Origin: an uncultured Planctomycetota bacterium
GTDB taxonomy: Bacteria; Planctomycetota; Planctomycetia; Gemmatales; Gemmataceae
Assembly (NCBI GenBank): GCA_963849325.1
Contig: CAWKHF010000002.1
Coordinates: 192,001-256,000 of the forward strand
Length of the DNA stretch: 64,000 bases
Reading direction: 5' to 3'
The notes under the pieces are model-generated. The model worked only from the letters and a program-made list of their open reading frames with translations, did no database searches and had not been told where the DNA came from. Positions 21,011 to 60,371 of the stretch are shown piece after piece. The translations under genes were made by a program, and so were the position numbers. Within the stretch, counting starts at the first letter, position 1. Each line of letters opens with the position of its first letter.

Positions 21011-21839
21011 TCACTCAAAGAGTGAGCGCTGCTCGGGCGGCCGATCCGCGAACGGCTCGACAACGCGGGCTTGAGGTAATCGTTCTCCGATCAAATCGCG
21101 CAGCTGCCGGGCGTTGGCGATGGCCTGCCCACCAAAACAATTGTTGAACAGAAACAACACCTCCTCGGTTCGGTCCTGTGCAGCGCGCAAAGATTCCACC
21201 CACTCAGCCAATTCCGGATCTGCGTAAGTGTAATCGTAGCGCTCCTTGTCGGAGGCGTACCAGTTGGCCGCCTTGCGCGAGTGCAGCCGCACATAGGCGC
21301 GGCGGCTAGACTGCACCCATCCGCGCGGGAACAGGGCCGGCAAATCGGGCACGTCAACGGCTACCAGATCGAGATGGTTCGTCGCCATCCAGTCCGCGAG
21401 ATCCGCGCGCCCAGGAGCGATGGCGGAACTCGACGGCCAGGCGAAAATCAGCCAGTTCTCCGCTCAACGTCTCCAACCAGGCCAGGGCTTTCTGTCCGAA
21501 GCGAGTGGACTGAGGCAACTGGCAGAGCAGCCCCTTGAGCTGGTTGCGGCGCTGTAGCTCGATGACGGCCTGTCGAAAGCCGGGCAAGTCGTCTGTCTTC
21601 TGCTCGTGACTGAGGGAACGCGGCAGCTTCACGAGGAACGAGAAACCGTCGGGCACATGGTCGGCCAGTCGCGCCAGCATGTCCGCCGTGGGGGGGCGAT
21701 AGAAGGTGAAATTCAACTCCACCAGCGGAAAGCAGCGACTGTAGTAGGCCAGCATTTTGCCGGATCGGGTGCCGGGAGGGTAGAAGGACCCGACCCAATC
21801 CCGATAAGAATATCCCGAGGTGCCGATCCACACGTCCAT
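21011..21839 (-). CDS. DUF72 (YecE-like) protein (frameshift ~21405)
   Basis: IGTSGYSY.DW, VELNFTFY, LCQLP, AVEFRHRSW, YVRLH, FNNC. Confidence 0.9.
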
Positions 21840-21847
21840 AAAGAGTT

Positions 21848-25458: not shown

Positions 25459-26391
25459 AGAGCCTATCCGAATAACCTGGTGACGAGTACAATGTCTATA
25501 GTCCGTCGGCACTTGTGTCTCGATGACTGGCGTTGTGCGGAGGCTCTACCATGGACGAACGACCCATTCCGGACGATTGGCGTATCTCCGATGACCTCTG
25601 GGAGGCCATCGCTCCGCTGCTGCCCGAACACCCAAACACACACCGCTTCGGCGGCGGTCGGCCCCGAAAGCCCGACCGTGTTCTGCATGGAAGCCATCCT
25701 CTTCGTGCTCCGCACCGGCTGTCAATGGAAGGCGCTGGACGCCACCAAGTTCTGCCCGGCTTCCACCGCCCACGATCGTTTTCAAGAATGGGTCCAGGCC
25801 GGCGTCTTCCGGGAACTCTGGGAACACGGCTTGATGGCCTACGACGACTGGAAAGGGATCGATTGGTCCTGGCTGTCGATGGACGGGTGCATGACCCAAG
25901 CACCCCTTGGGGGGGAAAAAGACGGGCAAAAATCCCACCGACCGGGCCAAGAAGGGCAGCAAACGCAGCCTGCTGACCGAGGCCGAGGGCATCCCGGTGG
26001 GACTGGCCGTGGACGGTGCCAACCGTCCGGACATGAAGATGGTCGAAGAGACTCTCGACAGCATCCCCGTGGAGCGTCCCGAGCCGACGCCCGACGAGCC
26101 GCAGGGTCTGTGCCTGGACTTGGGCTATGACTATGACGAGGTGCAAGCGATTGCCGAAGAATTCTACTTCACGACGCATCTGCCGCCCCAGAAGGGAGCC
26201 GCGCAGCAGGTGAAGCGGAAGGCGGGCCGTAAGGCGAGACGTTGGGTGGCGGAGCGGACGCACAGTTGGATGAACCGATTCCGCGGCATTCTGATCCGTT
26301 GGTGCAAGAAGGCCGAGAACTATATTGCCCTGTTGCATATGTCTTTCGCCTTCATCATTTACAAGCGTATGGGGTTAACCGGATAGGCTCT
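25459..26391 (+). mobile_element. IS5-family element (IS427/IS1031-like), ~933 bp
   Basis: Terminal IRs agagcctatccg / cggataggctct, flanked on both sides by TA. Confidence 0.9.
25551..26386 (+). CDS. IS5-family transposase in two frames (G7A5 slippery site ~25909-25920, extra indel ~25675)
   Basis: ISDDLWEAIAPLLP, ILFVLRTGCQW, SMDG, LDLGYD, RWVAERTHSW. Confidence 0.9.
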
Positions 26392-29182: not shown

Positions 29183-29677
29183 TCAGGAATTCGTGGCTTC
29201 GTCGCCGAATAACTCGGGCGTGTCGAGCGCCCGCCAGAAGTCCAAATCCTCGACCAGATCGTAAGAACGCTTATTCTCGATCAAGCGCAAATCGTGGATA
29301 AGTTCCGGATCGCCCGGTTCGCGCGGCACGCACCAGTTAAAGCCTGCGTAGCCGCCCCAGCCGGCCAGGAGCAGCGCCGCCGCCCAGCCCAGGCCGAGGC
29401 AGCGCGTCCTCCAACGCTGTCCGCGTCGTCCTTCGTTGTCCCGCACCGGCGACAGTCGTTCGAGGGTGCGATTGGTGAAGGTAGGCGACGGCTGCGGGCG
29501 CGGGAGGTAATCGAGCAGCTCCCAGGTACGGCGCAGGGAGTCGGCCTCGGCGCGGGCCGCCGCGTTCAAGCTCAGCTTCGCCTCCAGGTCGCGGGCGGCC
29601 TCGTCGGCCAACTCGCCGTCGAGGTAGGCCACCAGGTCGGCCCGCTCCTGTTCGCTCATGGGAGACGGTTCGGTCAC
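29183..29677 (-). CDS. Membrane-anchored anti-sigma factor
   Basis: DLVAYLDGEL motif, one TM helix, GTGA overlap with the sigma gene. Confidence 0.85.
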   Translation of the reverse strand: MTEPSPMSEQERADLVAYLDGELADEAARDLEAKLSLNAAARAEADSLRRTWELLDYLPRPQPSPTFTNRTLERLSPVRDNEGRRGQRWRTRCLGLGWAAALLLAGWGGYAGFNWCVPREPGDPELIHDLRLIENKRSYDLVEDLDFWRALDTPELFGDEATNS

Positions 29678-30329
29678 GGACCCTCCTCCACATCTTCCGG
29701 GACGGGTTCGCCGTCCATGTAGATGTAACCGCTCAGGGCCGCGCGTAGGTTCTCCGCGCCCGGCTCAAGAGCGACTTGACCGCCTTGGTCGTCAGGCCCA
29801 TGACCTCGGCGATCTCGGCGTAATTCATGTCCTCGAACTTGTTGAGGACGACGGCCATGCGCTGGCGTTCGTTGAGTCCTTCGAGCGCCTGGCGAACCAT
29901 GGCGGCCAGTTCTTGTTGCTGGATGCGCTTCATGGGTCCGCTGCCGCGGTCGCGGACGATCTGCTCGGCGGGGCGTGGTCCTAACGGGCCGGAATCCTGG
30001 GCCGGCAGCGGCACTACCGGTTTGCGTTGCCGCGCCCGCAGGGAGTTGAGGGCCAGATTATTGGCAATGGTGAACAACCAGGTACAGAACTTGGCCCGTG
30101 GACGATATTTCTTGCGTGATCGATAAACGCGCAGGAACACCTCCTGGGACAGATCTTCGGCCTCGGTGGCGTTGCCGACCAGGTGATTCATGACGGCCAC
30201 AAGGCGGTGCTGATACAGCTCGACCAGTTCCTCGAACGCGCCGGGTTGGTCGTCGCGCACGCGCAGCATGAGGCGGATGTCCGGATCGCGGAGGGCCAGT
30301 TGCGTGCTGGTCTCGCCGGTCGCTGCCAC
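29674..30329 (-). CDS. ECF RNA polymerase sigma-70 factor (frameshift ~29755)
   Basis: AEDLSQEVFLRVY, TWLFTIANN, YAEIAEVMG...VKSLLSRAR. Confidence 0.95.
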
Positions 30330-30345
30330 AACAATCCCACCTCCA

Positions 30346-30488
30346 AAGAATCAACCACAGATGAACGATGAACACGGATAAACACAGATAAGAGAGAAAG
30401 CAAGCAATCAACAGCGGGTAAACTCGTTTGTAGTTATTTCTTCTCTTTAATATCTGTGTTGATCTGTGTTCATCTGTGGTTGATTCTT
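30346..30488. repeat. Palindromic 9-nt-unit element (family C, copy 3) with AT-rich loop
   Basis: aagaatcaaccacagatgaac ... gttcatctgtggttgattctt. Confidence 0.88.
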
Positions 30489-31593: not shown

Positions 31594-31817
31594 GTCGTCA
31601 TTGTAGACGGCTGACTTCCGGCGCGGGAAGAGACGACCTCGCCGAGTGGAGCGTTTTTTCGAGAAGTTGGCCGTTACGAGAAGCAGCGCGGATTTGCCCT
31701 TGGCGGCGGTTCCTCCCATAATAACCGCGTCGCCTCTACGACGTGTGCCTTGCCGGCCTGTTCTGCCCGGCCGTCCCCACCGTGGCCGCGTGAACTGAGC
31801 AAGTAAGAGTGACTACC

Positions 31818-32957
31818 ATGAGTGAGCCGGAGTTTCGCCCAGGATTGGCCGACGTTCCCGTGGCGGAGTCGGCGATTAGCTTCATTGATGGCAAGCGTGC
31901 CCGCCTGGAATATCGCGGCATCGCTGTCGAAACCCTGGCCCGAGAGAGCTGTTTCGAGGAGACGGCCTGGCTGCTGCTCAAAGGCGTGCTGCCAACTCAA
32001 CGAGAACTGGCCGCCTTCGACCACGACCTGCGCCATCACCGTCGCATCAAGTACAAACTGACCGACCTGATCAAGTGTCTGCCGGAGACGGGCCATCCGA
32101 TGGACGCCCTGCAAGCGGGCGTTGCCGCCCTGGGCATGTTCTACCCCGCCCGCGATGTTCACAACGAGCAGAGCAACTGGGATTCGGTCGTGCGCCTGAT
32201 CGCCAAGCTGCCGACCATCACCGCCGCCTTCCACCGCCTCCGCCACGGCGACGCGCCGATCGGGCCGCGCGACGACCTCGGCCACGCTTCCAACTTCTAT
32301 TACATGCTCACCGAACAGGAGCCATCGCCGGCCGTCGCCAAGGTGCTCGACGCCTGCCTGATCCTGCACGCCGAGCACACCATGAACGCCTCGACGTTCA
32401 GCGGCCGCGTCACCGGCTCGACCCTGGCCAATCCGTACACGGTCATTAGCTCCGCCATCGGCACGCTGACCGGCCCGCTGCACGGCGGCGCCAACGAGCA
32501 GGTGCTGGACATGCTCGACGAGATTGGCTCGCCGGACAACGTCCGTGCCTGGCTCGACGACGCCATCGCCCACAAAAAGAAGATCATGGGCCTGGGCCAT
32601 CGCGTCTACAAGGTCAAGGACCCGCGCGCCACGGTGCTGCAAGAACTGGCGGAGAACGCCTTTGTCGAGACCGGCCGGCCGAAGCTCTATCAGCTGGCCC
32701 TGGAAATGGAGCGCGTCGCCGCCGGCGTCCTGGGACCGAAAGGCATTTATCCCAACGTCGATTTCTACTCCGGCATCGTCTACCTGAGCATAGGAATCCC
32801 GCGCGACCTGTTCACGCCGATCTTCGCCATTGCCCGCGTCGCCGGTTGGCTGGCGCACTGGCTGGAACAGTTGAAGAACAACCGCATCTTCCGGCCGGAG
32901 CAGATCTACGTCGGCAAGCACGACGTACCGTATGAGCCGCTTGAGCAACGGCCGTGA
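31818..32957 (+). CDS. gltA: Citrate synthase
   Basis: LHAEHTMNASTF, GPLHGGANE, MGLGHRVYKVKDPRA, PNVDFYSG. Confidence 0.97.
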   Translation: MSEPEFRPGLADVPVAESAISFIDGKRARLEYRGIAVETLARESCFEETAWLLLKGVLPTQRELAAFDHDLRHHRRIKYKLTDLIKCLPETGHPMDALQAGVAALGMFYPARDVHNEQSNWDSVVRLIAKLPTITAAFHRLRHGDAPIGPRDDLGHASNFYYMLTEQEPSPAVAKVLDACLILHAEHTMNASTFSGRVTGSTLANPYTVISSAIGTLTGPLHGGANEQVLDMLDEIGSPDNVRAWLDDAIAHKKKIMGLGHRVYKVKDPRATVLQELAENAFVETGRPKLYQLALEMERVAAGVLGPKGIYPNVDFYSGIVYLSIGIPRDLFTPIFAIARVAGWLAHWLEQLKNNRIFRPEQIYVGKHDVPYEPLEQRP

Positions 32958-33378: not shown

Positions 33379-35645
33379 ATGAAGGACATTCCCCGTCTGC
33401 TGATCGCCGTCACGCTGGCCATCGTCGCCGCGGCGCCGCTTCAAGCCGCACCAATCCGGCACGCTCTGCTGGTCGGCTGTACCAAATACGACAACCTCGA
33501 TCCGGCCAACTACCTGGTAGGCCCGGCCAACGACGTGCTCCTCTTCCGCGACGTGCTGACGAATTATTACGACTTCCGCGACAAGGACATCGTCATCCTC
33601 TCGGAAGCGGCCGGCAAGGAGAAGGGCGAGCGCTTCCGGCCGACGCGGGCCAACATCCAGCGCGAGTTCGCCGAGTTGGCCCGCAAGGCCGGCAAGGATG
33701 ATCGCGTGGTCATTCTCCTGGGCGGACACGGCAGCCAGCAGCCCGACAGCAAGCCCGATGACCCCGAGCGCTTCGAGCCGGACGGCAAGGAAGAGATCTT
33801 TTTGCCCGCCGACGTCGGCCAGTGGGACGGCGTCTCGCGCGTCAAGAATGCCATCGTCGATTACGAGTTCCGCGATTGGCTCAAAGACATCCGCAAGACC
33901 GGAGCGTCGCTGTGGGTGATCGTCGATGCCTGCCATTCGTCGTCCGTGCTGCGTTCGCCGACGGAGAAGCCGCGCGAGGTGGAGGGGAACAAATTGGTGC
34001 CTGCCGACGTGCTGCGGCAGGCCGAGGACAAGGCTCGCAAACGCCAGGAGGGCCGCGAACGCGGCAAGAAACGGCTGACGTTCAAGCTCCCTCCTCAGGA
34101 GCCGGACCTCGTGGCCATCTACGCCGCGCAGTCCACCGAACCGACCGTCGAGCTGGTCCTGCCGGAAGAAGGGCCGGAGCGGAGTCGCAAACCGCAAGGT
34201 TTACTTACTTACACTCTCTGTAAAGTCCTTATTGAGGCGAAGGAAGCCAAGGCTTCGCTCACCTACCATCAGCTGCTTCAACGTATCCACGACCACTACA
34301 AGGGTTGGAACCGGACCTATCCCACGCCGCTCATCGAGGGCAAGGACCGCAACCGCGAGATTTTCGGCGAAGTGCGGAGGGGGGAGCGAACGCCGGCGAT
34401 ACACTGATCCGCCTCGATCAAGACGGACAAGGCGACTGGTTCATTGACCAGGGTTCGCTGCACGGCCTCACCGTGGGCAGCGTCTTGAAGGTCTACCCTC
34501 CCGCCGGAGGGGCCGATTCCGAGAAGGCCATCGGTCATGTCGAAATCCTGGAGGATGATTTCGGTGCTCTGCGGGCGCGGGTCAAGCCGTGCGCGTTCGC
34601 CCGGATGCCGGAACCGAAGGGGAACGAGTTACCCAAGCGCGGCCGCTGTGAGCTGGTCTTCGTCAATTATGGCGAGCAGCGGTTGGCGGTGGCCGTCGAT
34701 CCGCGGACGCTCAAGGACGAGGAAGTGCCCAAGGACAAGCGGCAGCCCCTGCTCGACATGCTGAAAAAACTCGAGGGCGAAGAAGGTTCACTCGTCAAGT
34801 CTGCCTCCCCCGCCGAGGCGCAGTGGCTGTTGCGCTTCGATTCGCTGCAATCAGGCAAACTATATCTGACCCCGGCATCCGGCCTGTCGTTGCCGGACGG
34901 GTCCGGCAAGTCGGCGGCGCGAGTCGGAGCGTCGCCGAGCCTGCCGCCGCTGTTCGGCCCTGTCCCCGCCGGGAGGGAGAGTTGGCTGCGGGAGCGCCTG
35001 GCCCGCATCGCTCGTGTGCGGAACCTGTTGGCCATCGCCAATCGGCCGGCCCGCGCTCACAGGGATTCTCCCCTCGACGTGAAGTGCAAGTTGGAGGTGG
35101 TACGGTTCCGCAACGACGACGACGAAACCGGCGCGCCGCTGACGCGCGGCCCCGAAGGTGCCGTCCTCCATGACCGAGACAAGGTTGGCATCGTGGTGAC
35201 CAACGAGGGCCGCGAGCCGATCGACGTCACCATCCTTTTGCTCGACAACGAGTATGGCATCAGTTCGATTTTCCCGCAGGCGGCTGATACGGACAACCGC
35301 GTTCAACCCAACAAACCACTCCCCTTTCGCACGACGCTGCGCACCAAGACCGGGGGAGTCGAACATGTCCTGGTCGTTGCGGTCAAGGGCGAGAGTGTCC
35401 GGGAGTATGCCCAGTTTAGCTTCCTGGCTCAACCGAGCATCGAGAAGGCCACCCGCGAAATGGCGAGCGTTTCCCGGGGAACGCGGGAAAGGAGTCTGGA
35501 ATCGTCCCTGGGCAAGCTCCTGCTGGGCGCGGCTTACGGTCGGGGCAAGCAGAGGGGCATGGAGATGACGGCGGCGAAGGAGTTTGCCTTCCAGCTATTC
35601 TCCTACGAGGCCATGCCGACGCGGTGCCCGACCGGCAAGAAGTAA
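33379..35645 (+). CDS. Caspase-family (C14) protease with signal peptide and C-terminal DUF4384-like beta domain (frameshift ~34400)
   Basis: HALLVG, GPAND, PTRANI, catalytic GGHGSQ and DACHS. C-terminal VGIVVTNEG...VTILLLD...ISSIFP. Confidence 0.88.
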
Positions 35646-35695
35646 ACGCAAAGGTTTGTCACCCAATGAAGTCTTTTTCTTCGAGGAGCAACGCG

Positions 35696-37651
35696 ATGAG
35701 GTATCGTCGAGTGGGGAGCGTCCTGGCGGGGATGGCCGCCTTATCCGCCCTGATGTGGCTGACTGCGATCTCCGCCCCGGCCGAGGGACGCAAGGACATC
35801 GAGGCGAAAAAAGCGGCGACGCGGGCCGCCCCGGAGGACGCCCTGCGAGCGCTGACGGCCTTCCGTCCCGCCGCCGCCTCGGCCGACCGCGGCGAACCGA
35901 TCCCGCAAACCATCGCCACGCCGTACACCAGCGCCTACAAAGTCCTCCACCTGGAGTTCAAGAACGCCGACTCGTGTGAGCGCTTCAAGGCCGACGGCGC
36001 TTACGTCTTCAACCGTTTCGGCCGTTTCGCCGACCTGTTCATCGACGCCGACAAGAACCTGGCCGACGTGCTGTTCAAGGACAAGAACGCCGGCATCGTC
36101 TGGTTCGACTTCTCGACGACGGCCATCGCGCCGCCGCCGCCGCCGGCCCGCAAGGACAAGGAGAACGTCCGCGCCCTCGAGGGCGTCCTTCGCGGCGGCG
36201 CCGGCGCGCTGACCGGCAAGGGCGTCCTCGTCGCCATCATCGACACCGGCATCGACTTCCATCACCCCGACTTCATCGACTACGACGCCGACGGTAAACC
36301 GACCTCGCGCCTGCTCGCCTTCTGGGACACCGCCAGCGACGCCTACGCCGATCAGATCGGCAGTCCGGGGCCGGTTCGCTATCCCAACGGCGCCTCGGTC
36401 GGCACGGTCTTCTCGCGCGCGGACCTGACGACCGAGCTGCGTTCGGGCAAGCCGCGCATCCACGTCTGGGACATCGACGGCCACGGCACCGCCTGCGCCA
36501 GCATCGCGGCCGGCAACGGCAACGCCCTGGAAAAGAAGCGTTACGCCGGCGTCGCTCCGCAGGCCGACCTCATCGCCGTCCGCATCCAGGATCGCGGGCC
36601 TGGACTGGAGAACTTCTATCTGCTCAACGCCATCTGCGCCTGGGTTAATGACCTGGCCGCCAAGGAAGGCAAGCCGGCGGTCCTGTCGTGCAGCTTTGGC
36701 GGCCACGTCGGCGGTCACGACGGCTACCGCATCGATGAGCGCCAGCTGAACGCTCGCTTTCCCAACACCCTCCGCGGCCGGGCCATCTGCATCGCCGGCG
36801 GCAACGAGGGCGCCGACCGCATTCACGCTGCCGTCTCGTTCGGTCCAGACGACAAGGGCACTCTGAAATGGGACTCTTATCGCGGCGGCACCCTCGACAT
36901 CTACACGGACGCCGAGAACAAGACGGACGTCGAGGTCGAGGGCGTCAGCGACAAGCAGGTCGTCAAGTTCTTGCACGGGTCTGACCGGCAAGGTGGTGCT
37001 GTACGTGCGGGTGCCGGCCGGCCGGGGCGAGCTGCGCCTGATGAGCAAGGCCAACAAGAAGCTCAGCGCCGACGCCTACATTCCGACGAGCCACTATCCC
37101 GGCGACGGCTTCGACGATTCGTGCCGGGTGCCGGGCAAGCAAATCGGCACGCCGGCGACGACCGGCCAGGCCATCACCGTGGGCAGCTACGACTTCGACA
37201 ACCACTTCGAGCTGCAGGGCAAGCCGGTCTTCTTCAAGGCCGAGGACAGCAAGGGCCAGCTGACTGCGCATGACGCTCGGGCGCCCTGTCGGGCTACTCC
37301 AATCCGGGACCGAGCCGCATCGGCGACGTGGTCAAGCCGGACCTGGTAGCGCCGGGGCAATACTGGACGGCCAGCGCCGCTCTGAACACACGGGCCATCC
37401 GCGACACGTCGGGCGGCTATCGGCTGTTCAACGGCACCAGCGCCGCGACGCCGTACACCGCCGGCGTGGTGGCCCTGCTGATGCAGAAGAAGCCGTCAAT
37501 CACGGTGGGCGAGATCAAGGACTTGATCCGCAACCACGCCGACAAGGAGGACGATCACGTCAGCCGCTCCGGCCGCACGCCGAACCCGGAGTGGGGCTAC
37601 GGCAAGCTCAACCGCAAGGCCGTGGCCGCTATGCTGGAGGCGATTCGCTAG
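35696..37651 (+). CDS. S8 family subtilase with signal peptide (frameshifts ~36978, ~37268, ~37283)
   Basis: RBS gaggag. Triad VAIIDTGID, DGHGTACASIAAG, FNGTSAATPYTAG. KPDLVAPG, WGYGK. Confidence 0.93.
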
Positions 37652-37659
37652 GAACTGTC

Positions 37660-37712
37660 GGGGCCGGCTGGGTGAGCGACGGACAGCACCGTCGCTGACG
37701 CTGCCGGCTCCG
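37660..37712. repeat. Degenerate REP-like palindrome (family B-like)
   Basis: gccggc...tgagcgacgg ... ccgtcgctgac...gccggc. Confidence 0.55.
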
Positions 37713-37750
37713 ACCCCTCCTCCGCCCTTGGCCGCATCAGGAGGACAGGC

Positions 37751-40700
37751 ATGTCTTCGTATACGCATTCCAGGCTGTTGTGCTTTTGTCTTCTCAGTGG
37801 GTTAACGTGTCTTGTTTTCTACGCGCCGTCTCCTGCCGGCGATCCACCGCCACTGACAGGAGTGCAAAAGGAGAAGCTGAAGGAGTTCAACCGCCTCGCT
37901 GGGGAGGCGGTTCGGCTTCGCCGCGAGGGCAAGGCGGCTGAGGTCGTCGCCACCATCGAGAAGATGCTGACAATCGAGCGACAGGGATTCGGCGAGGTGC
38001 GAGAGAGCGGAGTTTCATGGCTGGAATGGCTGGCCGGAATGCATGAGCAGGGTGAGGACTTCACCGCCGCCCGCAAGGCGCGGCAGGAAGTGCTGGCGAT
38101 CCGTACCAAGCTCCACGGTGAGGAGCACTGGAGGGTCCTTGATGCCCGGCTGGAGTTGGCGGACGTTGATCTGCTGGAAAAGCTGGACCGCGAGCAGCGG
38201 CGACAGTTGAGCGAGGCCGACACCCTGCTGCGGCAAGTGAGTCAACTCTACCAGCGAGGCAAGGCGCGAGAGGCTTTACCCCTGGCGGAGAAGGCCCTGC
38301 GTATCCGCCGGAGTGTTTACCGAACACAACACCCTCGTTATGCCGCGGCGTTAGTTTGGCTCGGTCTCCTGAATTCCTCCCAGGGTCACTACGCCCGGGC
38401 CGAGTCGCTGTACCGCCAGGCGCTGGCCATCCGCAAGCAGGCGCTAGGCGAGAAGCACCCCGACTACGCCCTCAGCCTGAACAACCTGGCCCAGCTGTAC
38501 TTCTACCAGGGCGAGTATGCCAAGGCCGAGTTGCTGTACCGCCAGGCGGTGGCCATCCGCAAGCAGGCGTTGGGCGAGAAACACCCCCACTACGCTACCA
38601 GCCTGGATAACCTGGCCGCGCTGTACGACTCCCAGGGTCACTACGCCCGGGCCGAGCCGCTGTACCGCCAGGCGCTGGAGATCAAGAAGCAGGTGTTGGG
38701 AGAGAAGCACTCCGACTACGCCTTCAGCCTCAACAACTTGGCCCATCTGTACTATTCCCAGGGCGATTACGCCCGAGCCGAGCCGCTGTACCGCCAGGCA
38801 TCCGAGATCTGGAAGCAGGCGCTGGGCGAGAAGCACTCTCTCTATGCCACCAGCCTGAACAACCTGGCCGCGCTGTACTCCTCCCAGGGCGACTACTCCC
38901 AGGCCGAACCGCTGTTCCGCCAGGCGCTGGAGATCAAGAAGCAGGCGCTGGGCGAGAAGCATCCCGACTACGCCACCAGTCTGAACAACCTGGCCCAGCT
39001 GTACAAGTACCAGGGCGACTACGCCAGGGCCGAGCCGCTGTACCGACAGGCGTCGGAAGTCTTGAAGCAGGGGATGGGCGCCAAGCACCCCAACTACGCC
39101 ACCAGTCTGAACAGCCTGGCCCATCTGTACTATTCCCAGGGCGACTACGCCAAGGCCGAGCCGCTGTATCGCCAGGCGCTGGACATCCGCAAGCAGGCGC
39201 TGGCGCGAAGCACCCCGACTACGCCCTCAGCCTGAACAACCTGGCCTTGCTGTACAAATCCCAGGGCGACTACGCCCAGGCCGAGCCGCTATACCAGAAG
39301 GCATCGGAGATCTACGAGCAGGCACTGGGCGCGAAGCACCCCGACTACGCCACCAGTCTGAACAACCTGGCCGCGCTGTACGACTCCCAGGGCGACTACG
39401 CCCAGGCCGAGTCGCTGTACCGCCAGGCGTCGGAAACCTGGAAGCAGGCGCTGGGAGAGAAGCACCCCGACTACGCCCGAAGTCTCAACAACCTGGCCCA
39501 TCTGTACTCTTCCCAAGGCGACTACGCCAAGGCCGAGCCGCTGTACCGGAAGGCATCCGAGATCTGGAAGCAGGCGTTGGCGCGAAGCACCCCGACTACG
39601 CCACCAGTCTGAACAACCTGGCCCAGCTGTACCACTCCCAGGGCAACTACGCCCAGGCCGAGCCACTATGCTTGCAATCCCTTGGCATCTCCCGCGATAA
39701 CCTCGAACTGGCCGCCGCCGTGCAATCCCAACGTCAGCAACTGGCCATGCTGGAAAACCTGCGTTTCCGCCTCGACGCTTACCTATCCCTGGCAGCCGAG
39801 GCCAAGAAACCCGCCGACAAGCTGTATGAGCAGTCCCTGACCTGGAAGGGCATCGTCGGACTGCGGCAACGCAACCAGCGAATGGCCCGACGCCATCCCG
39901 AGTTGGCCGCCGACTTCGCCGAACTCAATCGCGTCGCCGCACGCCTGGCTACCCTCGCCCTCAGCATGCCCGATCCCAAACGTCTCGACGTACACCGCCA
40001 GCAGATGCAGGATCTGACCGAGGACAAGGAACGACTGGAAGGCCGGCTGGCCCGCCGCAGTGCTGATTTCCGTCAGGAGAAAGAACGAAGCCGGCTGACG
40101 CCGGCGCAACTGCAAGCCGCACTGCCCAGGGACGCCGCCCTCCTCGACTTCCTCGAATATACCCACTTCACTCCCTCCGCCCAGAAGAAGGGACAACTGA
40201 ATCGAGAGCGCCGGTTCCTCGCTTTCGTCGTCCGCCCCGATACGCTGGTGCGGGTGGACCTCGGCCCGGTCAAGCCCATCCAGGAAGCGATCGAGCGCTG
40301 GCGGCCGGCCCTGCAACGCCGCTTCCGCACCGAAGGCGATGACGCCCTCGGCGCCGCCGTCCGCCAACTCGTCTGGAACAAGCTGGAGAATCACTTGCAG
40401 GGAGCGCAAGTGGTGCTGGTCTCTCCCGATGGCGCCCTGGCCCGCGTGCCCTTCGCCGCCCTGCCCGGCAGCAAAAAAGACTCCTTCCTGCTGGAAGAGT
40501 TGGCCATCGCTGTCGTGCCCGTGCCGCAACTCTTGCCGCAACTGCTGGCACCACGCCCGGACGAGGGCAAGACCGAGCCGTCGCTGTTGCTGGTCGGCGA
40601 TGTCAGCTACGATGCCGGCGTTGGCGCGGCGGTCGCCGACAGCCGCTCGGCTCCCCGCGCCGGCACGCTGTTGAGCTGGAAGGCGTTGGAGAACACGCGC

Positions 40701-41423
40701 GCCGAGGTGGCGGCGGTCAAGGACAGCTTCCAGCGTCGCTTTCGCCGCGGCGTCGTCACCGACCTGCGCGAAGACGAGGCCAGCGAGGCCGAGGTACGCA
40801 AGGAAGCGCCGAAGAATCGTTATCTGCACTTCGCCACGCACGGCTTCTTCGCCCCCAAGGAGCTGCGCTCGGCCCTCAGCGCTGCCTCGCGCGGCAAGGA
40901 GTCTGACTCCGCCAACCTGTTCGGTGGTCGCAAGGACATGGCCGGCTTCCATCCGGGTCTGCTGTCGGGTCTGGTGCTGGCGGGGGCCAATCGGCCGGCG
41001 GAGGTGGGCAAGGACGATGGCATCCTGACGGCGTTGGAAGTGGAATCGCTGGACTTGGCCGGCGTCGAGTTGGCGGTGCTGAGCGCCTGTGAGACGGGCC
41101 TGGGCGAGCAAGCGGGCGGCGAGGGCTTGCTGGGATTGCAACGCGCCTTCCAGGTGGCCGGAGCGCGCGGCGTAGTAGCGGGTCTGTGGCAGGTCGATGA
41201 CAAGGCCACGCGCGATCTGACGATGCGCTTCTACGAGAACCTGTGGAAAAAGAAGCTGCCCCGCCTGGAGGCGTTACGACAGGCGCAGTTGTGGATGCTC
41301 AAGGAAGGCATCAGCCGGAGCATGGTGAACGTGAAGGTGCCGAAAGAACGGCTGGGCAAGGACGACGGACGCTTGCCGCCTTATTACTGGGCCGCCTTCG
41401 CCCTCTCCGGCGACTGGCGCTAA
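37751..41423 (+). CDS. TPR-CHAT protease with signal peptide and 11 kinesin-light-chain-type 42-aa TPRs (frameshifts ~39203, ~39581)
   Basis: Repeats HPDYATSLNNLAxLYxxQGDYAxAEPLYRQA. CHAT motifs SPDGAL..VPFAAL, HFATHG, VLSACETG, LWQVDD, PYYWAAF. Confidence 0.93.
38327..39690 (+). repeat. 126-bp tandem coding repeat x11 (TPR array)
   Basis: Recurrent aagcaccccgactacgccaccagtctgaacaacctggcc. Confidence 0.92.
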
Positions 41424-41432
41424 TCCCGCCAT

Positions 41433-43076
41433 TTAGACCAGGTAATCGCCCAACAGCGTCCGGGCGATCAGGAAGTAGATGACGATGCCCGTCACATCGA
41501 CGGCGGTGGCCACGAAGGGGCTGGAGGCGTAGCCGGGATCGCGGCCCAGACGTTTGAGCAGCAACGGCAGCATCGAGCCGACCAGGGTGCCCCACAAGCA
41601 GATCGACGCCACCGCCAGGGCGATGACCAGCGACAGCCGATAGCGGTCCACCGGATCGTGGATCACCCGGCAATTGCCCGGAAACTTGTAGATCTCGAAA
41701 TGATCCGGATCATGGACATCGGGGACGATCTGATAATTCTCCTTGCGAGGTAGGCCAATTTTCGTCAGATGTTGGTCCACCATGCTCTGTTGGTAGCCAG
41801 GCGGGACCAGGACGACCGTGAAAGGCTCCTTTTCCGTCCACTCCGTCACCGGGTATTCGTCGAGTCGCGTCCCCCGGGGCACCTTGACCTGGAACGGTTC
41901 GGGGCGCGAGGCGGCGCTGCTGCGGACGCTGTCGGGAGTCAGCGAGGCGCGGCCGAAGCCGATCAGGCCCAGCGTCGCCCCCAGGATCAGCCCCATGCCG
42001 ATCTCGTGACGCAGCACGCGCAGCCAGTCCTTGCCCCGGACCTGGCCCAGGGCCATGGCGCGCGTGATTAGGGTGGCGGCCTGCGAGCCGGAGTTGCCGC
42101 CCGTGGAGATGCACAGCGGCACAAACAGGCTGAGCACGACCACAGCGGCGATGGCGTCCTCGAAGTAGGACAGGGCCGTGAATGTGAACAGCTCGGCGAC
42201 GAACAGGATGGCCAGCCACGAGGCCCGCTTGCGCCAGATCAGAAAGAAGCTCGCTTCCAGGTAGTTCTCTTCCAGCGGATTGACCGCGCCCATGCGGTGA
42301 ACGTCCTCGGTCGCCTCGGACACGACCACGTCGATCACGTCGTCGTAGGTGACGATGCCGACGAGGCGCTTGTCGTCGTCGAGGACGGGGATGGCCAGCA
42401 GGTCGTAGTGCGTCATGTCCTGGGCGACCTTCTCGCGGTCGTCGCTGACGCGCACGGTGATCGGCTGGGCGTCCATCAATTCGTTGACCAGCGCCCGCCG
42501 CGGCGCCAGGATCAGCTCGCGCAGCGTCACCACGCCGAGCAAGCGTCGCTGCTCATCGACGACGTAGACGTAATAGATGGTCTCGCTGTTCGGCGCCTGC
42601 AAGCGGAGACGGTCCAGCGCCTGTTCGACGCTGATGTTGGCCGGCAGCCAGGCGTAGTCGGTGGTCATCAAGGCGCCGGCGGTGTTCTCCTCATACTTGA
42701 CCAGCGTGGCGATGTCGCGGCGGTCGGCCTCATCGACCAGGCGCAGCAGGCTCTCGACGACCTTCGGCTCCAGATGGCGCAGCAGGTCGGCGCGATCGTC
42801 GTGCGACATCTGCTCGATCAGGCGAGCCATGTGCGGTCGGCCCGTGCCCTCGACCAACTGTTCCTGCCACTCCAGCGGGAAGTACACGAAGATCGTGGCC
42901 TGATTGGCGATCGACGTGGTATTGAGGAAACGCCAAACGTCTTCGACCGCGAAGTGATCGGCCAGCGACTCGGCGACCGTGGCCGGGTGCAGCGTCTCGC
43001 AGAACGCCTCCATCGCCGCGGTGTCTTCTTTCTCCAGCAGCAGACGGGCTTCCGGGGTGAACAGGGGATGCGACAT
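41433..43076 (-). CDS. mgtE: Magnesium transporter MgtE, with an insertion in the membrane domain
   Basis: MgtE N domain, CBS pair (TAGALMTT, IYYVYVVD, GIVTYDD), GGNSGSQ, FVATAVDVTG. Confidence 0.95.
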   Translation of the reverse strand: MSHPLFTPEARLLLEKEDTAAMEAFCETLHPATVAESLADHFAVEDVWRFLNTTSIANQATIFVYFPLEWQEQLVEGTGRPHMARLIEQMSHDDRADLLRHLEPKVVESLLRLVDEADRRDIATLVKYEENTAGALMTTDYAWLPANISVEQALDRLRLQAPNSETIYYVYVVDEQRRLLGVVTLRELILAPRRALVNELMDAQPITVRVSDDREKVAQDMTHYDLLAIPVLDDDKRLVGIVTYDDVIDVVVSEATEDVHRMGAVNPLEENYLEASFFLIWRKRASWLAILFVAELFTFTALSYFEDAIAAVVVLSLFVPLCISTGGNSGSQAATLITRAMALGQVRGKDWLRVLRHEIGMGLILGATLGLIGFGRASLTPDSVRSSAASRPEPFQVKVPRGTRLDEYPVTEWTEKEPFTVVLVPPGYQQSMVDQHLTKIGLPRKENYQIVPDVHDPDHFEIYKFPGNCRVIHDPVDRYRLSLVIALAVASICLWGTLVGSMLPLLLKRLGRDPGYASSPFVATAVDVTGIVIYFLIARTLLGDYLV

Positions 43077-43230: not shown

Positions 43231-44092
43231 CTAAACCCTATCGATCAGGAGATTATCGATCAGGCGCGTGCCGCCGAAACGGACGGCAAGGGCCAGCAAA
43301 ATCGGTCGGCCGGCGCCGAGCCGGGCGAGAGGTTCCAACGAGTCGGCATCCACGACAGCAGCATAATCGAGGACGGCACCGCGAGCGGACTGGACGTGCT
43401 CCGCCATCACCCGGCGCAGCACGGCGGCGTCTTGCTCTCCCGCGTCGATCCGCTGTCGCGCTTCCGTGAGCGCGCCGTGAAGGACCGTGGCCTGACGGCG
43501 CTCGTCCGCTTCAAGATACTGGTTCCGCGAACTGAGAGCTAGACCATCCGCTTCACGGACGATTGGACAGACCCGGACCTCGACCGGGACGTTCAGGTCG
43601 TGCGCCATTTGCCGAATGAGGCGCGCTTGCTGGGCGTCCTTCTGACCGAAATAGGCACGATCCGGCTGGACCAGGTTGAAGAGCTTGAGGACGACGGTAG
43701 CCACGCCGCGGAAGTGCCCCGGCCGTGATGCGCCGCACAGCACGTCCTGCCAGCCGGTCACCTCGACGAAGGTGCGGTAGCCCGGCGGATACAGCACGGT
43801 CGGCTCCGGATGGAAGACGAGATCGACGCTCGACTCGGCGGCACAGTTCCAGGTCGCGCTCCAGCGGACGGGGGTATTGCTGCAAATCCTCGTTCGGGCC
43901 GAACTGCGTTGGGTTGACGAAGATGGAGACGACGACGTAAGCCGTCTCGGCACGGGCTGCCTCGATCAGGCTGAGGTGTCCCGCGTGCAGGGCGCCCATC
44001 GTCGGCACCAAGCCAATCGTCAGAACGCGCCGGCGAGCATTGGCGACGGCGACGCGCAGGGTAGGAATGTCCGTCACCACGGTAGGTTTCAT
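43231..44092 (-). CDS. panC: Pantoate-beta-alanine ligase (frameshift ~43840)
   Basis: [49 protein letters not shown]. Confidence 0.97.
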
Positions 44093-55160: not shown

Positions 55161-56251
<1,091 letters not shown>

Positions 56252-56273
56252 GCGGAGTTCCGAGAATAACTTC

Positions 56274-56339
56274 GTTTAGCCGCGACGCGCAGCGGAGCGC
56301 GGAGCGATTCCCGCGCTCCGCTGCGCGTCGCGGCTAAAC
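56274..56339. repeat. REP/REPIN-like palindrome (family A, copy 3)
   Basis: gtttagccgcgacgcgcagcggagcgcgg ... ccgcgctccgctgcgcgtcgcggctaaac. Confidence 0.92.
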
Positions 56340-56375: not shown

Positions 56376-58021
56376 TCAGGCGGTTCCGACCTTCGCCTTC
56401 TGCTCGCCGGGCGGCACGTCGTCGGAATCGGGATCGAACCACGATTCCTGGAACTCGATGCGCTGGTGCTTCCGCATGGCGTGGTTGGCGGTCAGGGCGA
56501 TGATGGCATCGGCCATGGCGACCTTGCCGGGGCAGCGTGGCAGACGGCGGTCCTTCTCGTTGGCCTGGTTCCACAGGCGGACGCAGTAGGCGAAGTCCTC
56601 CATCTCCTCGCGGTAGCCGCGGCTGACCGGGCCGCCGCCCGCTCCCGCCGGGCCGGCCGCTGCCGCGGTCGGCGACACCGTCGGGCCGCCCCACGTCGAG
56701 CCGGACTCCAGCACCGGCTTGTCTTTGCCGCCGGCGCTGACGCCGACCTCCGTGGCCCGCGGCTGCGTCTTGACCTTGCCCGGCTCCAGCTCCGGGAACA
56801 CCATCACCGTCGATTCCTTCTCGACGATCATGGTGCCGCGGTCGCCCGTGACGCATTCGCCGTAGTTCTCGAACTGGTTCGTGCTGATCGAGGAATAGGT
56901 GACGACGACGACATCGTGCTTGTCCCGGGCGTGGTTCTTGCCGGGGAACTCGTAGGTGGCGAAGACGTGGTCGTCAATGTCGCGGTCGTTGCGGCCGGGT
57001 CCGAAGAACGAGCGCGTGCCGACGCCGGAGACGGCCAGCGGATGGACGTGGCCCAGGAAGATGCTGCAAGCGTCGAGTTGATGGCTGCCCAGTTCGGCCA
57101 TCAGGCCGCCGCCCGTCGCCTGGTAGAGCCGCCAGCGGATCAGTTGCTCGACGTTGTCGAAGCCGTACTTCTTGAGCATGTCCTTCTTGTCGTGCAGGGC
57201 GTCGTAATCCAGGTGCGTGATCGGCGGGAACCAGCCGTCGCGGAAGGTGGGCTGCGCCACGTCCTTGACCAGTCTCCATCTTGGGATCGGCGTGGAACGG
57301 CCAGGTGAAATTGCGGTGCCACAGGGCGCGGATGTGCTTGATGTCGCCCAGCACGCCGGCGTTGACGACCTCCGTGGCGTGGGCGTACAGCATACTGTAA
57401 TGGCGCTGGTGGCCGACGGCCAACAGGCTGTTGCAGTCCTTGGCCGTGCGGATCATCTGCTTGCACTGGGCGATGTTCCAGGCCATCAGCTTCTCGGTCA
57501 GCACGTGGATCGGCTTGCCGCGCTCCTTGCCGATCTTCATGGCGTCGATGGCCGCCTTGGCGTGCATGACCAGCGGCAGGGCGATGACGACGGCTTCGAT
57601 GTCCTTGTTCTTGCGCAATTCCTCCATCAACCCTTCGTAGGTGTCAAACTTCTTGATCTTTTCGGCGTCGTTTGCCGTAGACCTTGTTGAAGCCCTTGCG
57701 GAGCGCGACCTTGGGGTCGCCCTCGAAGATGCGCGTCATGTTCGAGGGGCGGATGTCGCAGACGGCGACGAACTGGAGGTACTCGGGGTTGTGTTCGCCG
57801 ACGAGGACGCCGCCCTCGTCGCCGCCGCCGATGAGGGCCGCCTTGACCGGCTTGCCCTCCATGCCCTTGTAGCCGAAGTAAACGGCCGGCGAGACGACGG
57901 CCACGCTCGCCCCCGCCACCGCCAAACTCTTCATGAAGCCGCGCCGCGTCAGGCCGTCAGCCGTGTGCGCGAAGTTCGCCGTGCCGGTCGCGCGTTGTTC
58001 GGGGGTCAGGTCGATCGCCAT
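56376..58021 (-). CDS. Tat-signal Gfo/Idh/MocA oxidoreductase (frameshifts ~57672, ~57272)
   Basis: [41 protein letters not shown]. Confidence 0.88.
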
Positions 58022-59230: not shown

Positions 59231-60290
59231 TCAGTTCAGGGCGAACTCCTGCGGGGCGAGTCCTATCACGACAGCTTCCGCCCCCTCTCCCTCCGGCAGC
59301 AGGATCGCGCCGACGCCGGGATGGGCGGCACAATATCGGCGGGCCAGATCGACGCCGCCGACGTAGAACGCGGTCGAGAGCGCGTCGGCCTCGGCCGCGG
59401 TCGGGGCGAGGACGGAGGCGCTGGCGACGCCGGCGGCCGGCCAGCCCGTGCGCGGGTCGAGGATGTGGCCCAGCTTTTGTCCGTTATATTCCAGGTGCTG
59501 AAACGTGGCCGCCGAGGTCCCCAGCGCTCGGTCGCGCAGCCAGACCCGCGCCAACCGTCGCTGCCGGTCCCACGGATGCAGGATGCCCACCTGCCAGCCG
59601 CGTTCGCCGTCTGGAGGACTGCCTCTAGCGTACACGCTGCTGGTGCCTCCGTGCAACAACATACGGCGAAAGCCCCCATTCCTCGCGCCAGCAGCCGCGC
59701 CATCCGGTCGAGGGCGTAGCCCTTGCCGATGCTGCCGAGGTTGATCTCCAGCCCCGGCCGTCGGTAGCGCACGGTCCGCCGCGGCTCGTCCAGCTCGACC
59801 CACTGCATGCCGACGCGTTCCCGCACGGCCGCGCGTTCCGCCTCGGACGGCACGCGCCGCGGGCCGCGGAAGAAGCCCCACGCCTTGATGAGCGCTCCCG
59901 CCGTGATGTCGAACGCGCCTTCCGTCTCCGGTGGATCTGGGCCGCCAGCTCCAGCAGGCCGAACAGTCCGCTGCTCCACGCGCACCGGCGCGGCGAATGC
60001 GCGCCGATTGAGCCGGCTGACCTCGCTGGTCTCGCGGTAGACCGTCAGCTGGTCTTCCAGCGCGATCGAGCAACTCGAAGGCGTCCTCGCCCATCTCCAC
60101 GCGCGTTGGTCGTCCCGAAGGGCAGAACGATCTCGAAGCCGGTGGCCATCGCTCGCCGGCGTAGGTGGAGCAGAACGCTGTTCTCGGACGAGGAAGAGTC
60201 CGGCGCGTCGGCCCACTCGTCGAGAGCGCCGAGCATGTGGCCGGCCGTTTGCGCGAGCTGTCGGGGCTGAAGGAAATCGCGGCGGTTCAT
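59231..60290 (-). CDS. apbE: FAD:protein FMN transferase ApbE (several frameshifts)
   Basis: AMATGF, SEVSRLN, GAFDIT, NLGSIGKGYALD, HILDPRTG, ADALSTA. Confidence 0.92.
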
Positions 60291-60294
60291 CAAA

Positions 60295-60371
60295 AGTTGC
60301 TGAGTTGCTGAGTTCTGAGTTCGTGAGTTCTGTCATTTCACTCAGAACTCAGAACTCAGAACTCAGAACTT
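60295..60371. repeat. Inverted arrays of 7-8-nt tandem repeats (gagttct / actcaga)
   Basis: gttgctgagttgctgagttctgagttcgtgagttctg ... ctcagaactcagaactcagaactcagaact. Confidence 0.85.

Follow-up and report, generated by a model that had tools for sequence, protein, structure and literature searches.

A 64,000-nucleotide stretch of DNA from an uncultured planctomycete of the family Gemmataceae (assembly GCA_963849325.1, contig CAWKHF010000002.1, positions 192,001 to 256,000; this whole stretch is hereafter the window) carries, between the genes for citrate synthase and MgtE, three co-oriented protease genes on the plus strand (33379-41423). They encode a C14 caspase-family protease with a C-terminal beta-sandwich region (gene 1), an S8 subtilase of a Csp-like subfamily (gene 2) and a protease in which a CHAT domain comes after a TPR array (TPR-CHAT; gene 3). 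We read this cassette, with a probability of roughly 45%, as a conserved module that recurs in several bacterial phyla, is probably co-transcribed and comprises three Sec-exported proteases at work in the periplasm or cell envelope. The domain content, the catalytic motifs, the signal-like N-termini in all three families and the tight linkage of the genes are directly observed; from these we infer that the trio may operate as a cascade, and what its biological role may be.

The same three families are brought together in many other genomes. A scan of genome contigs with an S8 alignment yielded 58 loci, of which 39 (labeled L001-L039) encode the same S8 subfamily (37-53% identity), and the remaining 19 (L040-L058), mostly archaeal and with distant S8 proteins, serve as controls; partner genes within 10 kb were detected by tblastn and by family hidden Markov models (HMMs) applied to six-frame open reading frames (ORFs), the caspase HMM being a full-length family model. 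The caspase family is present in 22/39 S8 loci and CHAT in 20/39, with either of them in 28/39 and both in 14/39; L030 and L034 each have, in addition to these HMM counts, a TPR-CHAT-cluster ORF cut by the contig end. None of the 19 control loci has a caspase or CHAT neighbor (Fisher p = 9e-6 for caspase, 4e-5 for CHAT and 6e-8 for either). An unlabeled clustering of 451 ORFs from the 39 loci recovers the same picture: the S8 cluster is found in 37 loci, the TPR-CHAT cluster in 24 and the caspase cluster in 23, and the next most widespread cluster in 6. The protease genes usually share a strand and either overlap or are spaced by about 0-120 bp; in the Acidobacteriota loci they abut or overlap, again on one strand. 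At least five gene orders occur, including S8, TPR-CHAT, caspase (L003, L019, L023, L036); S8, caspase, TPR-CHAT (L028, L030, L035); TPR-CHAT, S8, caspase (L017); and, as in the window, caspase, S8, TPR-CHAT (L025). By phylum, as tallied from a quick S8 tree and record titles, a partner is seen in 20/20 loci of Acidobacteriota, 7/15 of Planctomycetota, 2/3 of Armatimonadota and 0/1 of Kiritimatiellia. A pattern anchored instead on the caspase (from an 11-sequence alignment) gave 33 matches in the contig collection, 0 of them confirmed. Exactly these three families are recurrently and tightly linked, in variable order, and the case for the trio as a functional module is well supported. An earlier interpretation of the window made from its letters alone (the sequence-only reading) had staked its proposal on just such a recurring linkage in other genomes, and it is indeed found there.

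The second line of evidence concerns export. By eye and by the hydropathy rule given below, all three N-termini in the window, which read exactly as the sequence-only reading had quoted them, combine a basic n-region, a hydrophobic h-region and small residues at -3/-1; neither a lipobox nor a conserved twin-arginine motif was seen in any of the three. In the wider families, we called an N-terminus signal-like if a 10-residue window near it had a mean Kyte-Doolittle hydropathy of at least 2.0 and was devoid of acidic residues. This rule is passed by 93/108 full-length caspase-family representatives, by 83/120 listed S8 homologs and by 81/120 listed long TPR-CHAT homologs; among the ORFs of the loci, the corresponding figures are 32/44 for caspase, 25/37 for S8 and 23/32 for TPR-CHAT, and the failures are mostly fragments or over-extended ORF calls. 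Four of the five N-complete homologs of gene 1 are likewise signal-like by eye. Because signal-like N-termini prevail in all three families, export is predicted to be a family trait rather than a peculiarity of this window; the Sec-like signals that had been claimed for the three window proteins are thereby seen, under the hydropathy rule, to be the norm among their relatives.

The layout of the cassette also agrees with what had been described for it: coordinates and Pfam matches concur on three co-oriented genes separated by 50 and 99 bp and flanked by gltA and mgtE, and every catalytic motif that had been named could be located by coordinate (Table 1). A Shine-Dalgarno-like purine run stands ahead of the ATG in all three genes, and no terminator-like site was seen on the plus strand of either spacer. 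A broader promoter/terminator scan returned 0 promoter-like and 5 terminator-like sites; the latter are confined to the minus strand and outnumbered by those of shuffled sequences, and the scan is uninformative for Planctomycetes. By the family HMMs, the caspase, S8 and CHAT families are each represented once in the window, gene 3 being the only CHAT match of the entire 64 kb. None of the three proteins reaches any family cut-off in NCBIfam, and PADLOC applied to the cassette returned only its generic “caspase”, “subtilase” and “TPR” models.

Gene 1 matches Peptidase_C14 (PF00656; 1.1e-19, 71.5 bits against a cut-off of 21.4) and is covered by the full-length caspase-family HMM in two stretches, 33418-34389 (1e-140) and 34392-35636 (3e-144). 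Its nearest solved sequences are the metacaspases Yca1, MC9 and MC4 (1.5e-10 to 1e-6), and the GHG and DxCH columns are near-invariant in an alignment of 32 sequences of the family. No Pfam model reaches its cut-off in the region downstream of the C14 domain (DUF4384 comes to 12 bits, E = 0.2, where 27 are needed); a relative in locus L003 passes the DUF4384 cut-off (35.6 bits), and the Atlas cluster nearest to the tail is labeled “DUF4384 domain-containing protein” (score 0.96). A fold search of the modeled tail against the PDB gave only weak generic beta-sandwich matches (template-modeling score, or TM-score, of about 0.2 by query), some of them Wzt carbohydrate-binding-domain-like. The tail belongs to a large family: 1129 representative clusters match it at E ≤ 0.001, and 230 of them at ≤ 1e-30. 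Such relatives are typically 720-770 aa long, with the match starting near residue 335-390.

Gene 2 matches Peptidase_S8 (PF00082) in two pieces (2.1e-17 and 3.3e-16; 63.8 and 59.9 bits against 21.8), and the S8-family HMM accounts for 35696-36982, 36948-37265 and 37277-37648. The catalytic D, H and S and the oxyanion N are invariant across 38 homologs. The subfamily, with proteins of about 650 aa, is spread over Planctomycetota, Acidobacteriota and others (412 matches among 8000 scored candidates), and the closest relatives of gene 2, at 63-76% identity, are from Gemmataceae. A model of the ortholog P0013 built from 38 sequences (mean predicted local distance difference test, pLDDT, 81.5; predicted TM-score, pTM, 0.84) has a prodomain-like N-terminal beta-alpha unit (residues 75-139), a subtilase core and an eight-strand beta-rich insertion (372-457). 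Its best fold matches in the PDB are CspB, CspC and CspA (9.5e-29; TM-score 0.76 by target), followed at a distance by Tk-SP (4e-16), and the best PDB sequence match is also a Csp (3.3e-20). The curated Csp models are far from being reached (NF040809 for CspBA, 92 bits against 1250; NF040808 for CspC, 75.5 against 675). Going by the model, then, this subtilase is Csp-like in fold, yet not a Csp. Export through the twin-arginine translocation (Tat) pathway was considered for it and rejected, as the RR of the window protein is not kept in its orthologs.

In gene 3 the TPR array precedes a CHAT domain whose His and Cys columns are near-invariant in 20 homologs; the motif LSACxT is present in 20/22 TPR-CHAT ORFs of at least 900 aa from the loci. 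Homologs were sought with the in-frame CHAT piece alone, and this piece had 0 sequence matches among solved PDB chains at E ≤ 0.01. A lipoprotein signal was rejected for this protein, there being by eye no cysteine in a lipobox context. Many of the Gemmataceae TPR-CHAT paralogs (P0130-P0249) share a motif after the signal-like segment, roughly AEPP...LT.EQQEKLKERDRL, which could be a pro-region or a docking motif.

The loci from other genomes include variations on this theme. In seven Acidobacteriota loci (L012, L020, L021, L022, L025, L026, L027), the S8 gene lies beside one for a protein of 1063-1274 aa that starts with a signal-like segment and carries WD40 propellers and, at its C-terminus, a C14 domain; in three of these (L021, L026, L027) this protein stands in place of TPR-CHAT. 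What the two architectures have in common is the fusion of a caspase-fold protease with a repeat array. A CHASE2 protein (2.5e-30 in L006), one of a pair of membrane proteins, is encoded near S8 in the Planctomycetota loci L001, L006, L031 and L039. Six Acidobacteriota loci (L022, L025, L026, L028, L030, L033) have, adjoining the protease genes, a divergent gene for a protein of about 200 aa resembling extracytoplasmic function (ECF) sigma factors (TIGR02989, 3e-10, below cut-off), and in the same six a further gene for a single-pass membrane protein of about 320-350 aa, with the transmembrane helix at about 112-146 in 6/6. The two might form a sigma/anti-sigma pair that either controls the module or is controlled by it.

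Such pairs raise the alternative that the proteases are one arm of an ECF sigma pathway, performing the site-1 cleavage of a membrane anti-sigma factor upon sensing by the TPR or WD40 arrays, in the manner of the Myxococcus xanthus proteins DdvA and DdvS but with the parts on separate proteins. The adjoining pair in 6/20 Acidobacteriota loci speaks for it, as does the precedent for coupling TPR-CHAT to a sigma factor that DdvA provides (PMC11506125); type III-E Csx29 is a second precedent, and the sigma model of that system, NF041236, weakly matches the sigma-like protein of the loci (6.9e-5). We nevertheless consider this quite unlikely: the pair is confined to 6/39 loci, the sigma match stays below curated cut-offs and the anti-sigma match is at E = 0.14, and the pair may merely regulate the operon. 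Moreover, the ECF sigma gene of the window nearest to the cassette is 3 kb away on the minus strand, past two unrelated genes, and its product is dissimilar to the sigma-like protein of the loci, with no tblastn match between them. That window gene (29733-30350, minus strand) is followed by an ORF (29183-29764, minus strand) whose product has an anti-sigma-like N-terminus and one hydrophobic segment.

If the three proteases form an envelope module as we propose, its workings might be as follows. Because the S8 fold is closest to the Csp proteases, and CspB is the activator of pro-SleC, with a prodomain that stays bound (PMC3567191), the subtilase could by analogy be made with a prodomain and act as a specific convertase, either processing the two caspase-fold zymogens or being processed by them. 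Target choice would be up to the TPR array of the CHAT protein, a task that in some Acidobacteriota would fall to the WD40 propellers of the second C14 protein, and the beta-sandwich tail of the C14 protease may tether the enzyme to a component of the envelope. The output would be regulated extracytoplasmic proteolysis for envelope signaling or defense, as opposed to bulk digestion. The sequence-only reading had likewise suggested that the trio may be a proteolytic cascade, with a role in defense, recognition or signaling. A more ambitious version would see here an undescribed, multi-phylum extracytoplasmic cascade of S8, C14-beta-sandwich and TPR-CHAT (or WD40-C14) proteases, in which the diversified arrays serve as periplasmic receptors of foreign or damage signals, the Csp-like enzyme is the activating convertase and the output is envelope signaling, sometimes via an ECF sigma/anti-sigma pair, or defense. 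This we hold to be doubtful; if it were true, the caspase-like immune systems of the cytoplasm would have a counterpart outside the membrane.

Several observations weigh against the module as we read it, and they bear on its parts in different ways. With regard to export, the signal calls come from a crude hydropathy rule and from conservation among homologs, not from a trained predictor, and genes 2 and 3 have hydrophobic cores of considerable length (17-20 aa), so that their N-terminal segments could be uncleaved membrane anchors; anchored or cleaved, the catalytic domains would face the periplasm. With regard to linkage, 10/39 S8 loci have neither partner (three of these are on contigs shorter than 6 kb), a partner is present in fewer than half of the loci (7/15) from the window's own phylum, and the linkage set tops out at 53% S8 identity, with the Gemmataceae relatives (63-76%) and, apparently, the window's own genome outside it. 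Further, TPR-CHAT proteins are a very large paralog family in Gemmataceae (3703 matches among 8000 scored candidates), with several paralogs often present on the same contig (as many as five, in the case of one of 35,760 bp), so chance adjacency is likelier in this family of bacteria than elsewhere.

These last points would suit a coincidental adjacency of three unrelated exported proteases in genomes rich in them, TPR-CHAT and caspase genes being multi-copy in these phyla. We judge this highly improbable given the contrast of 28/39 loci with the 0/19 of the controls: only these three families recur widely, and across three phyla their genes overlap or nearly abut, arranged in several different orders.

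A more serious challenge to a cascade comes from the content of three closely related Acidobacteriota loci (L020, L021, L027), in which genes for a Peptidase_C11 (clostripain family) and a reprolysin-like M12B protease lie upstream of S8, joined in L021 and L027 by those for a 537-aa C14 protein and a 1290-aa outer-membrane beta-barrel. S8 and caspase genes following such further hydrolases fit nutrition better than signaling. The proteases would on this account be co-regulated but independently acting digestive enzymes of complementary specificities, which break down extracellular protein, or protein drawn into the enlarged periplasm of planctomycetes, as food, involving neither cascade nor sensing. 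The predicted export signals and catalytic motifs of all three proteins are as expected for such a set, and the resemblance of the caspase tail to generic binding beta-sandwiches, including the Wzt carbohydrate-binding-domain-like ones, would fit it too; planctomycetes are also described as accumulating intact green fluorescent protein and dextran in their periplasm (PMC5394234). Against this, the extra protease block is limited to those three loci, the S8 fold is nearest to the Csp convertases and not to broad-range subtilisins, and the sigma/anti-sigma-like pair and CHASE2 proteins adjoin some loci. Nor are bulk digestive enzymes known to carry, as a rule, large TPR or WD40 arrays joined to a caspase-fold domain. 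We regard the digestive set as the main rival to the envelope module, though rather unlikely on the balance of these points.

A different kind of objection arises from the state of the genes in this particular genome. The sequence-only reading had called the cassette catalytically intact, which is right in that every motif is there; it underplayed that no gene is a single open frame. Six frame breaks, one in the caspase, three in S8 and two in TPR-CHAT, were located by the frame profile of GC content at third codon positions, local sequence, ortholog alignment and piece-wise BLAST. All are single-base changes at G or C runs, mostly G runs. In gene 3, a TPR repeat motif of 14-15 nt occurs in three copies, intact at 39325 (CTGGGCGCGAAGCAC) and with GGG shortened to GG at 39200 and 39577; a context-specific base-calling error is the likeliest cause of the same G missing twice, although gene conversion may have spread a real deletion. 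In gene 2, the residues MTLG read from frame 1 (37270-37281) agree with RMTLGALSGY of the orthologs. Gene 3 forced through one frame has 14 stops, compared with 0 internal stops in all nine gene pieces, and piece-wise BLAST similarity to orthologs goes from 75-77% before to 86-88% after the breaks of S8 and is 70-73% for the CHAT piece.

The breaks could be real mutations, making the cassette a decaying relic from which no protein is made. The density of breaks, with 6 in the 8 kb of the cassette and four firm ones plus a probable fifth in the remaining 56 kb or so, counts against our reading and in favor of decay, with the proviso that break detection was much less sensitive outside the cassette than inside; the source's own calls for the cassette proteins are moreover fragmentary (P0001, 390 aa; P0010, 525 aa). 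Set against this are the stop-free pieces with undiminished ortholog similarity after the breaks, and the confinement of the changes to single bases at G/C runs, two of them identical in the same 14-nt context. Further genes of the window are split, too, namely those for a DUF72 protein, an AIR-synthase-related protein, a GFO/IDH/MocA oxidoreductase and ApbE, with PanC, which is short of its first 73 profile positions, probably also broken. Such scattered broken genes are typical of indel-prone long-read assemblies. Because other window genes are split as well and the pieces after the breaks are stop-free and conserved, the six breaks are, on the sequence features just given, most likely assembly indel errors, and hence the genes are probably functional in the organism; decay we consider very unlikely. 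The protease genes of two further Planctomycetota loci, L006 and L039, are likewise broken into several frames, which suggests the same kind of assembly error.

Table 1. Features of the protease cassette, its flanks and other split genes in the window, with the exported hydrolase blocks of three Acidobacteriota loci (coordinates of the respective locus)
Feature	Positions	Strand	Remarks
Citrate synthase gene	31794-32957	+	upstream flank; Pfam 3.5e-138
Gene 1, C14 caspase-family protease with C-terminal beta-sandwich region	33379-35645	+	~755 aa if read through; two frames
Gene 1 signal-peptide-like N-terminus	33379-33447	+	23 aa; basic n-region, 15-aa hydrophobic core, LQA before putative cleavage site
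Peptidase_C14 domain	33457-34290	+	Pfam
Gene 1 His motif GGHG	33721-33732	+	
Gene 1 Cys motif DACH	33925-33936	+	
Frame break 1, caspase	34379-34384	+	frame 1 to 0; run of six G
Gene 1 C-terminal region	34389-35645	+	mostly beta-sandwich, DUF4384-like by AlphaFold2 model (pLDDT 85.2, pTM 0.82)
Spacer, gene 1/gene 2	35646-35695	+	50 bp; GAGGAG Shine-Dalgarno-like run
Gene 2, S8 subtilase, Csp-like subfamily	35696-37651	+	~651 aa if read through; frames 2, 0, 1, 2
Gene 2 signal-peptide-like N-terminus	35696-35782	+	29 aa, end SAPA; shared by orthologs
S8 Asp motif DTGID	36242-36256	+	
S8 His motif GHGT	36479-36490	+	
S8 oxyanion Asn motif GGNEG	36797-36811	+	
Stretch with three frame breaks, S8	36977-37282	+	~36977 (frame 2 to 0), ~37269 (0 to 1), ~37282 (1 to 2)
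S8 Ser motif GTSAA	37433-37447	+	past three frame breaks
Spacer, gene 2/gene 3	37652-37750	+	99 bp; AGGAGG
Gene 3, TPR-CHAT protease	37751-41423	+	~1224 aa if read through; frames 2, 1, 0
Gene 3 signal-peptide-like N-terminus	37751-37837	+	29 aa, end PSPA; AGGAGG 8 nt before ATG
TPR_10/TPR_12 repeat array	38252-39660	+	piece 1, TPR_10 4e-93 (303 bits), TPR_12 5.7e-87; piece 2, TPR_12 1.8e-37
Frame break 5, TPR-CHAT	39200-39213	+	frame 2 to 1; CTGGCGCGAAGCAC, one G fewer than the intact repeat copy at 39325
Frame break 6, TPR-CHAT	39577-39590	+	frame 1 to 0; TTGGCGCGAAGCAC, same motif, same G missing
CHAT domain (PF12770)	40347-41414	+	4.2e-65, 220.5 bits against cut-off 24
CHAT His motif ATHG	40833-40844	+	
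CHAT Cys motif SACE	41082-41093	+	
MgtE gene	41433-43076	-	downstream flank
PanC gene	43231-43965	-	short
DUF72 gene	21011-21845	-	split
AIR-synthase-related gene	55161-56275	-	split
GFO/IDH/MocA oxidoreductase gene	56376-57735	-	split
ApbE gene	59234-60348	-	split
Exported hydrolase block, L020	3395-9449		
Exported hydrolase block, L021	65-9915		
Exported hydrolase block, L027	2-9632		

Elsewhere in the window, a DDE transposase fragment (DDE_Tnp_1, profile positions 22-195 of 200; 25895-26386, plus strand) is the remnant of an insertion sequence about 7 kb upstream of the cassette. On the minus strand, an open frame of 1418 codons (3096-7352) matches PA14 and cytochrome c. A second frame on that strand (4895-6394) overlaps it, with a higher third-position GC (0.85) and a cytochrome c match of its own; the two probably belong to a single large exported cytochrome protein whose gene contains additional frame breaks.

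Bacterial caspase-fold proteases have so far been understood almost wholly through cytoplasmic immunity, by way of gasdermin activation, Craspase and SAVED-CHAT. Should the enzymes of the trio act on one another, or on an envelope target that they share, they would provide a new setting for caspase-like regulated proteolysis, and one shared by Acidobacteriota, Planctomycetota and Armatimonadota, which are abundant and poorly studied phyla of soil and water. If they are only digestive, they would still be a set of secreted proteases of wide occurrence, with a bearing on protein turnover in soil and on the “digestive periplasm” of Planctomycetes. Intact orthologous operons are present, for instance, in L023, L028, L035 and L036. 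Comparative material is at hand, for biochemistry, in the intact operons of Pyrinomonadaceae and, for receptor diversification, in the expanded TPR-CHAT paralogs of Gemmataceae.

We found no description of a module of S8, C14 and TPR-CHAT in the full-text literature, with subscription papers and preprint supplements mostly beyond reach. The parts of the module do have parallels in known systems. Like the type III-E Craspase, whose Csx29 is itself a TPR-CHAT protein, and the SAVED-CHAT/PCaspase cascades, it would comprise a caspase-fold protease switched by a sensor to cut a specific partner. Those systems are cytoplasmic, Craspase being tied to Cas7-11 (gRAMP), with Csx30/Csx31 as further neighbors, and the SAVED-CHAT/PCaspase cascades to cyclic-nucleotide sensors; here, Pfam detected neither cas genes nor a SAVED domain among the 49 window ORFs scanned, and the loci have no conserved fourth family. 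A second parallel is to the proteases that activate gasdermins, in which S8 and caspase/CHAT families likewise serve as specific activators of a neighboring substrate. Bacterial gasdermins are activated by the products of caspase-like or subtilase neighbor genes, again in cytoplasmic systems. The gasdermin family was absent from the window ORFs scanned by Pfam, and the locus ORFs, which were clustered and in part scanned by Pfam, did not include it; the remark of the sequence-only reading that no effector gene is visible holds for the scanned window ORFs and, in the lack of a conserved fourth gene, extends to the loci. In fungi, HET-Q2 S8 and CHAT proteases are reported to activate gasdermins (PMC8851545).

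For the subtilase, the Csp germination proteases of Clostridia (PDB 4i0w, 6mw4, 9pr8, 9pr9) are the closest relatives both in fold and by PDB sequence match. The identity to them is only about 20%, and the S8 protein differs in having a signal-peptide-like N-terminus and in belonging to another phylum, with no spores and no SleC. Gene 1 shares its C14 domain with a His-Cys dyad with the prokaryotic metacaspases or orthocaspases, for which a 2012 survey reports 46 sequences with a single N-terminal helix that is “possibly a signal peptide” and proteolysis-related neighbors in 23 operons (PMC3501461). The text of the survey has 0 occurrences of CHAT, subtilase or DUF4384, and the architecture seen here, about 750 aa with a signal peptide, C14 and a beta-sandwich tail and linked to S8 and TPR-CHAT, is not described in it.

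The nearest precedent for the location that we propose is DdvA of Myxococcus xanthus, for which a periplasmic TPR-CHAT domain has been solved (PMC11506125). The sequence-only reading had assumed that the characterized bacterial caspase and CHAT modules are cytoplasmic, and this premise is wrong because the TPR-CHAT of DdvA is periplasmic. DdvA has features of its own: a cytoplasmic zinc-binding anti-sigma domain, a transmembrane helix and the ECF sigma partner DdvS, with no S8 or C14 partner reported. In the product of gene 3, by comparison, just 8 residues come ahead of the hydrophobic segment; it has no cytoplasmic anti-sigma domain, and no sigma gene adjoins it. Both proteins combine a TPR array with a downstream CHAT domain that contains a His-Cys dyad, predicted in our case to lie, as in DdvA, outside the cytoplasmic membrane; the action proposed for DdvA in that source, signal-induced proteolysis in the envelope, is of the kind that we would expect of the module.

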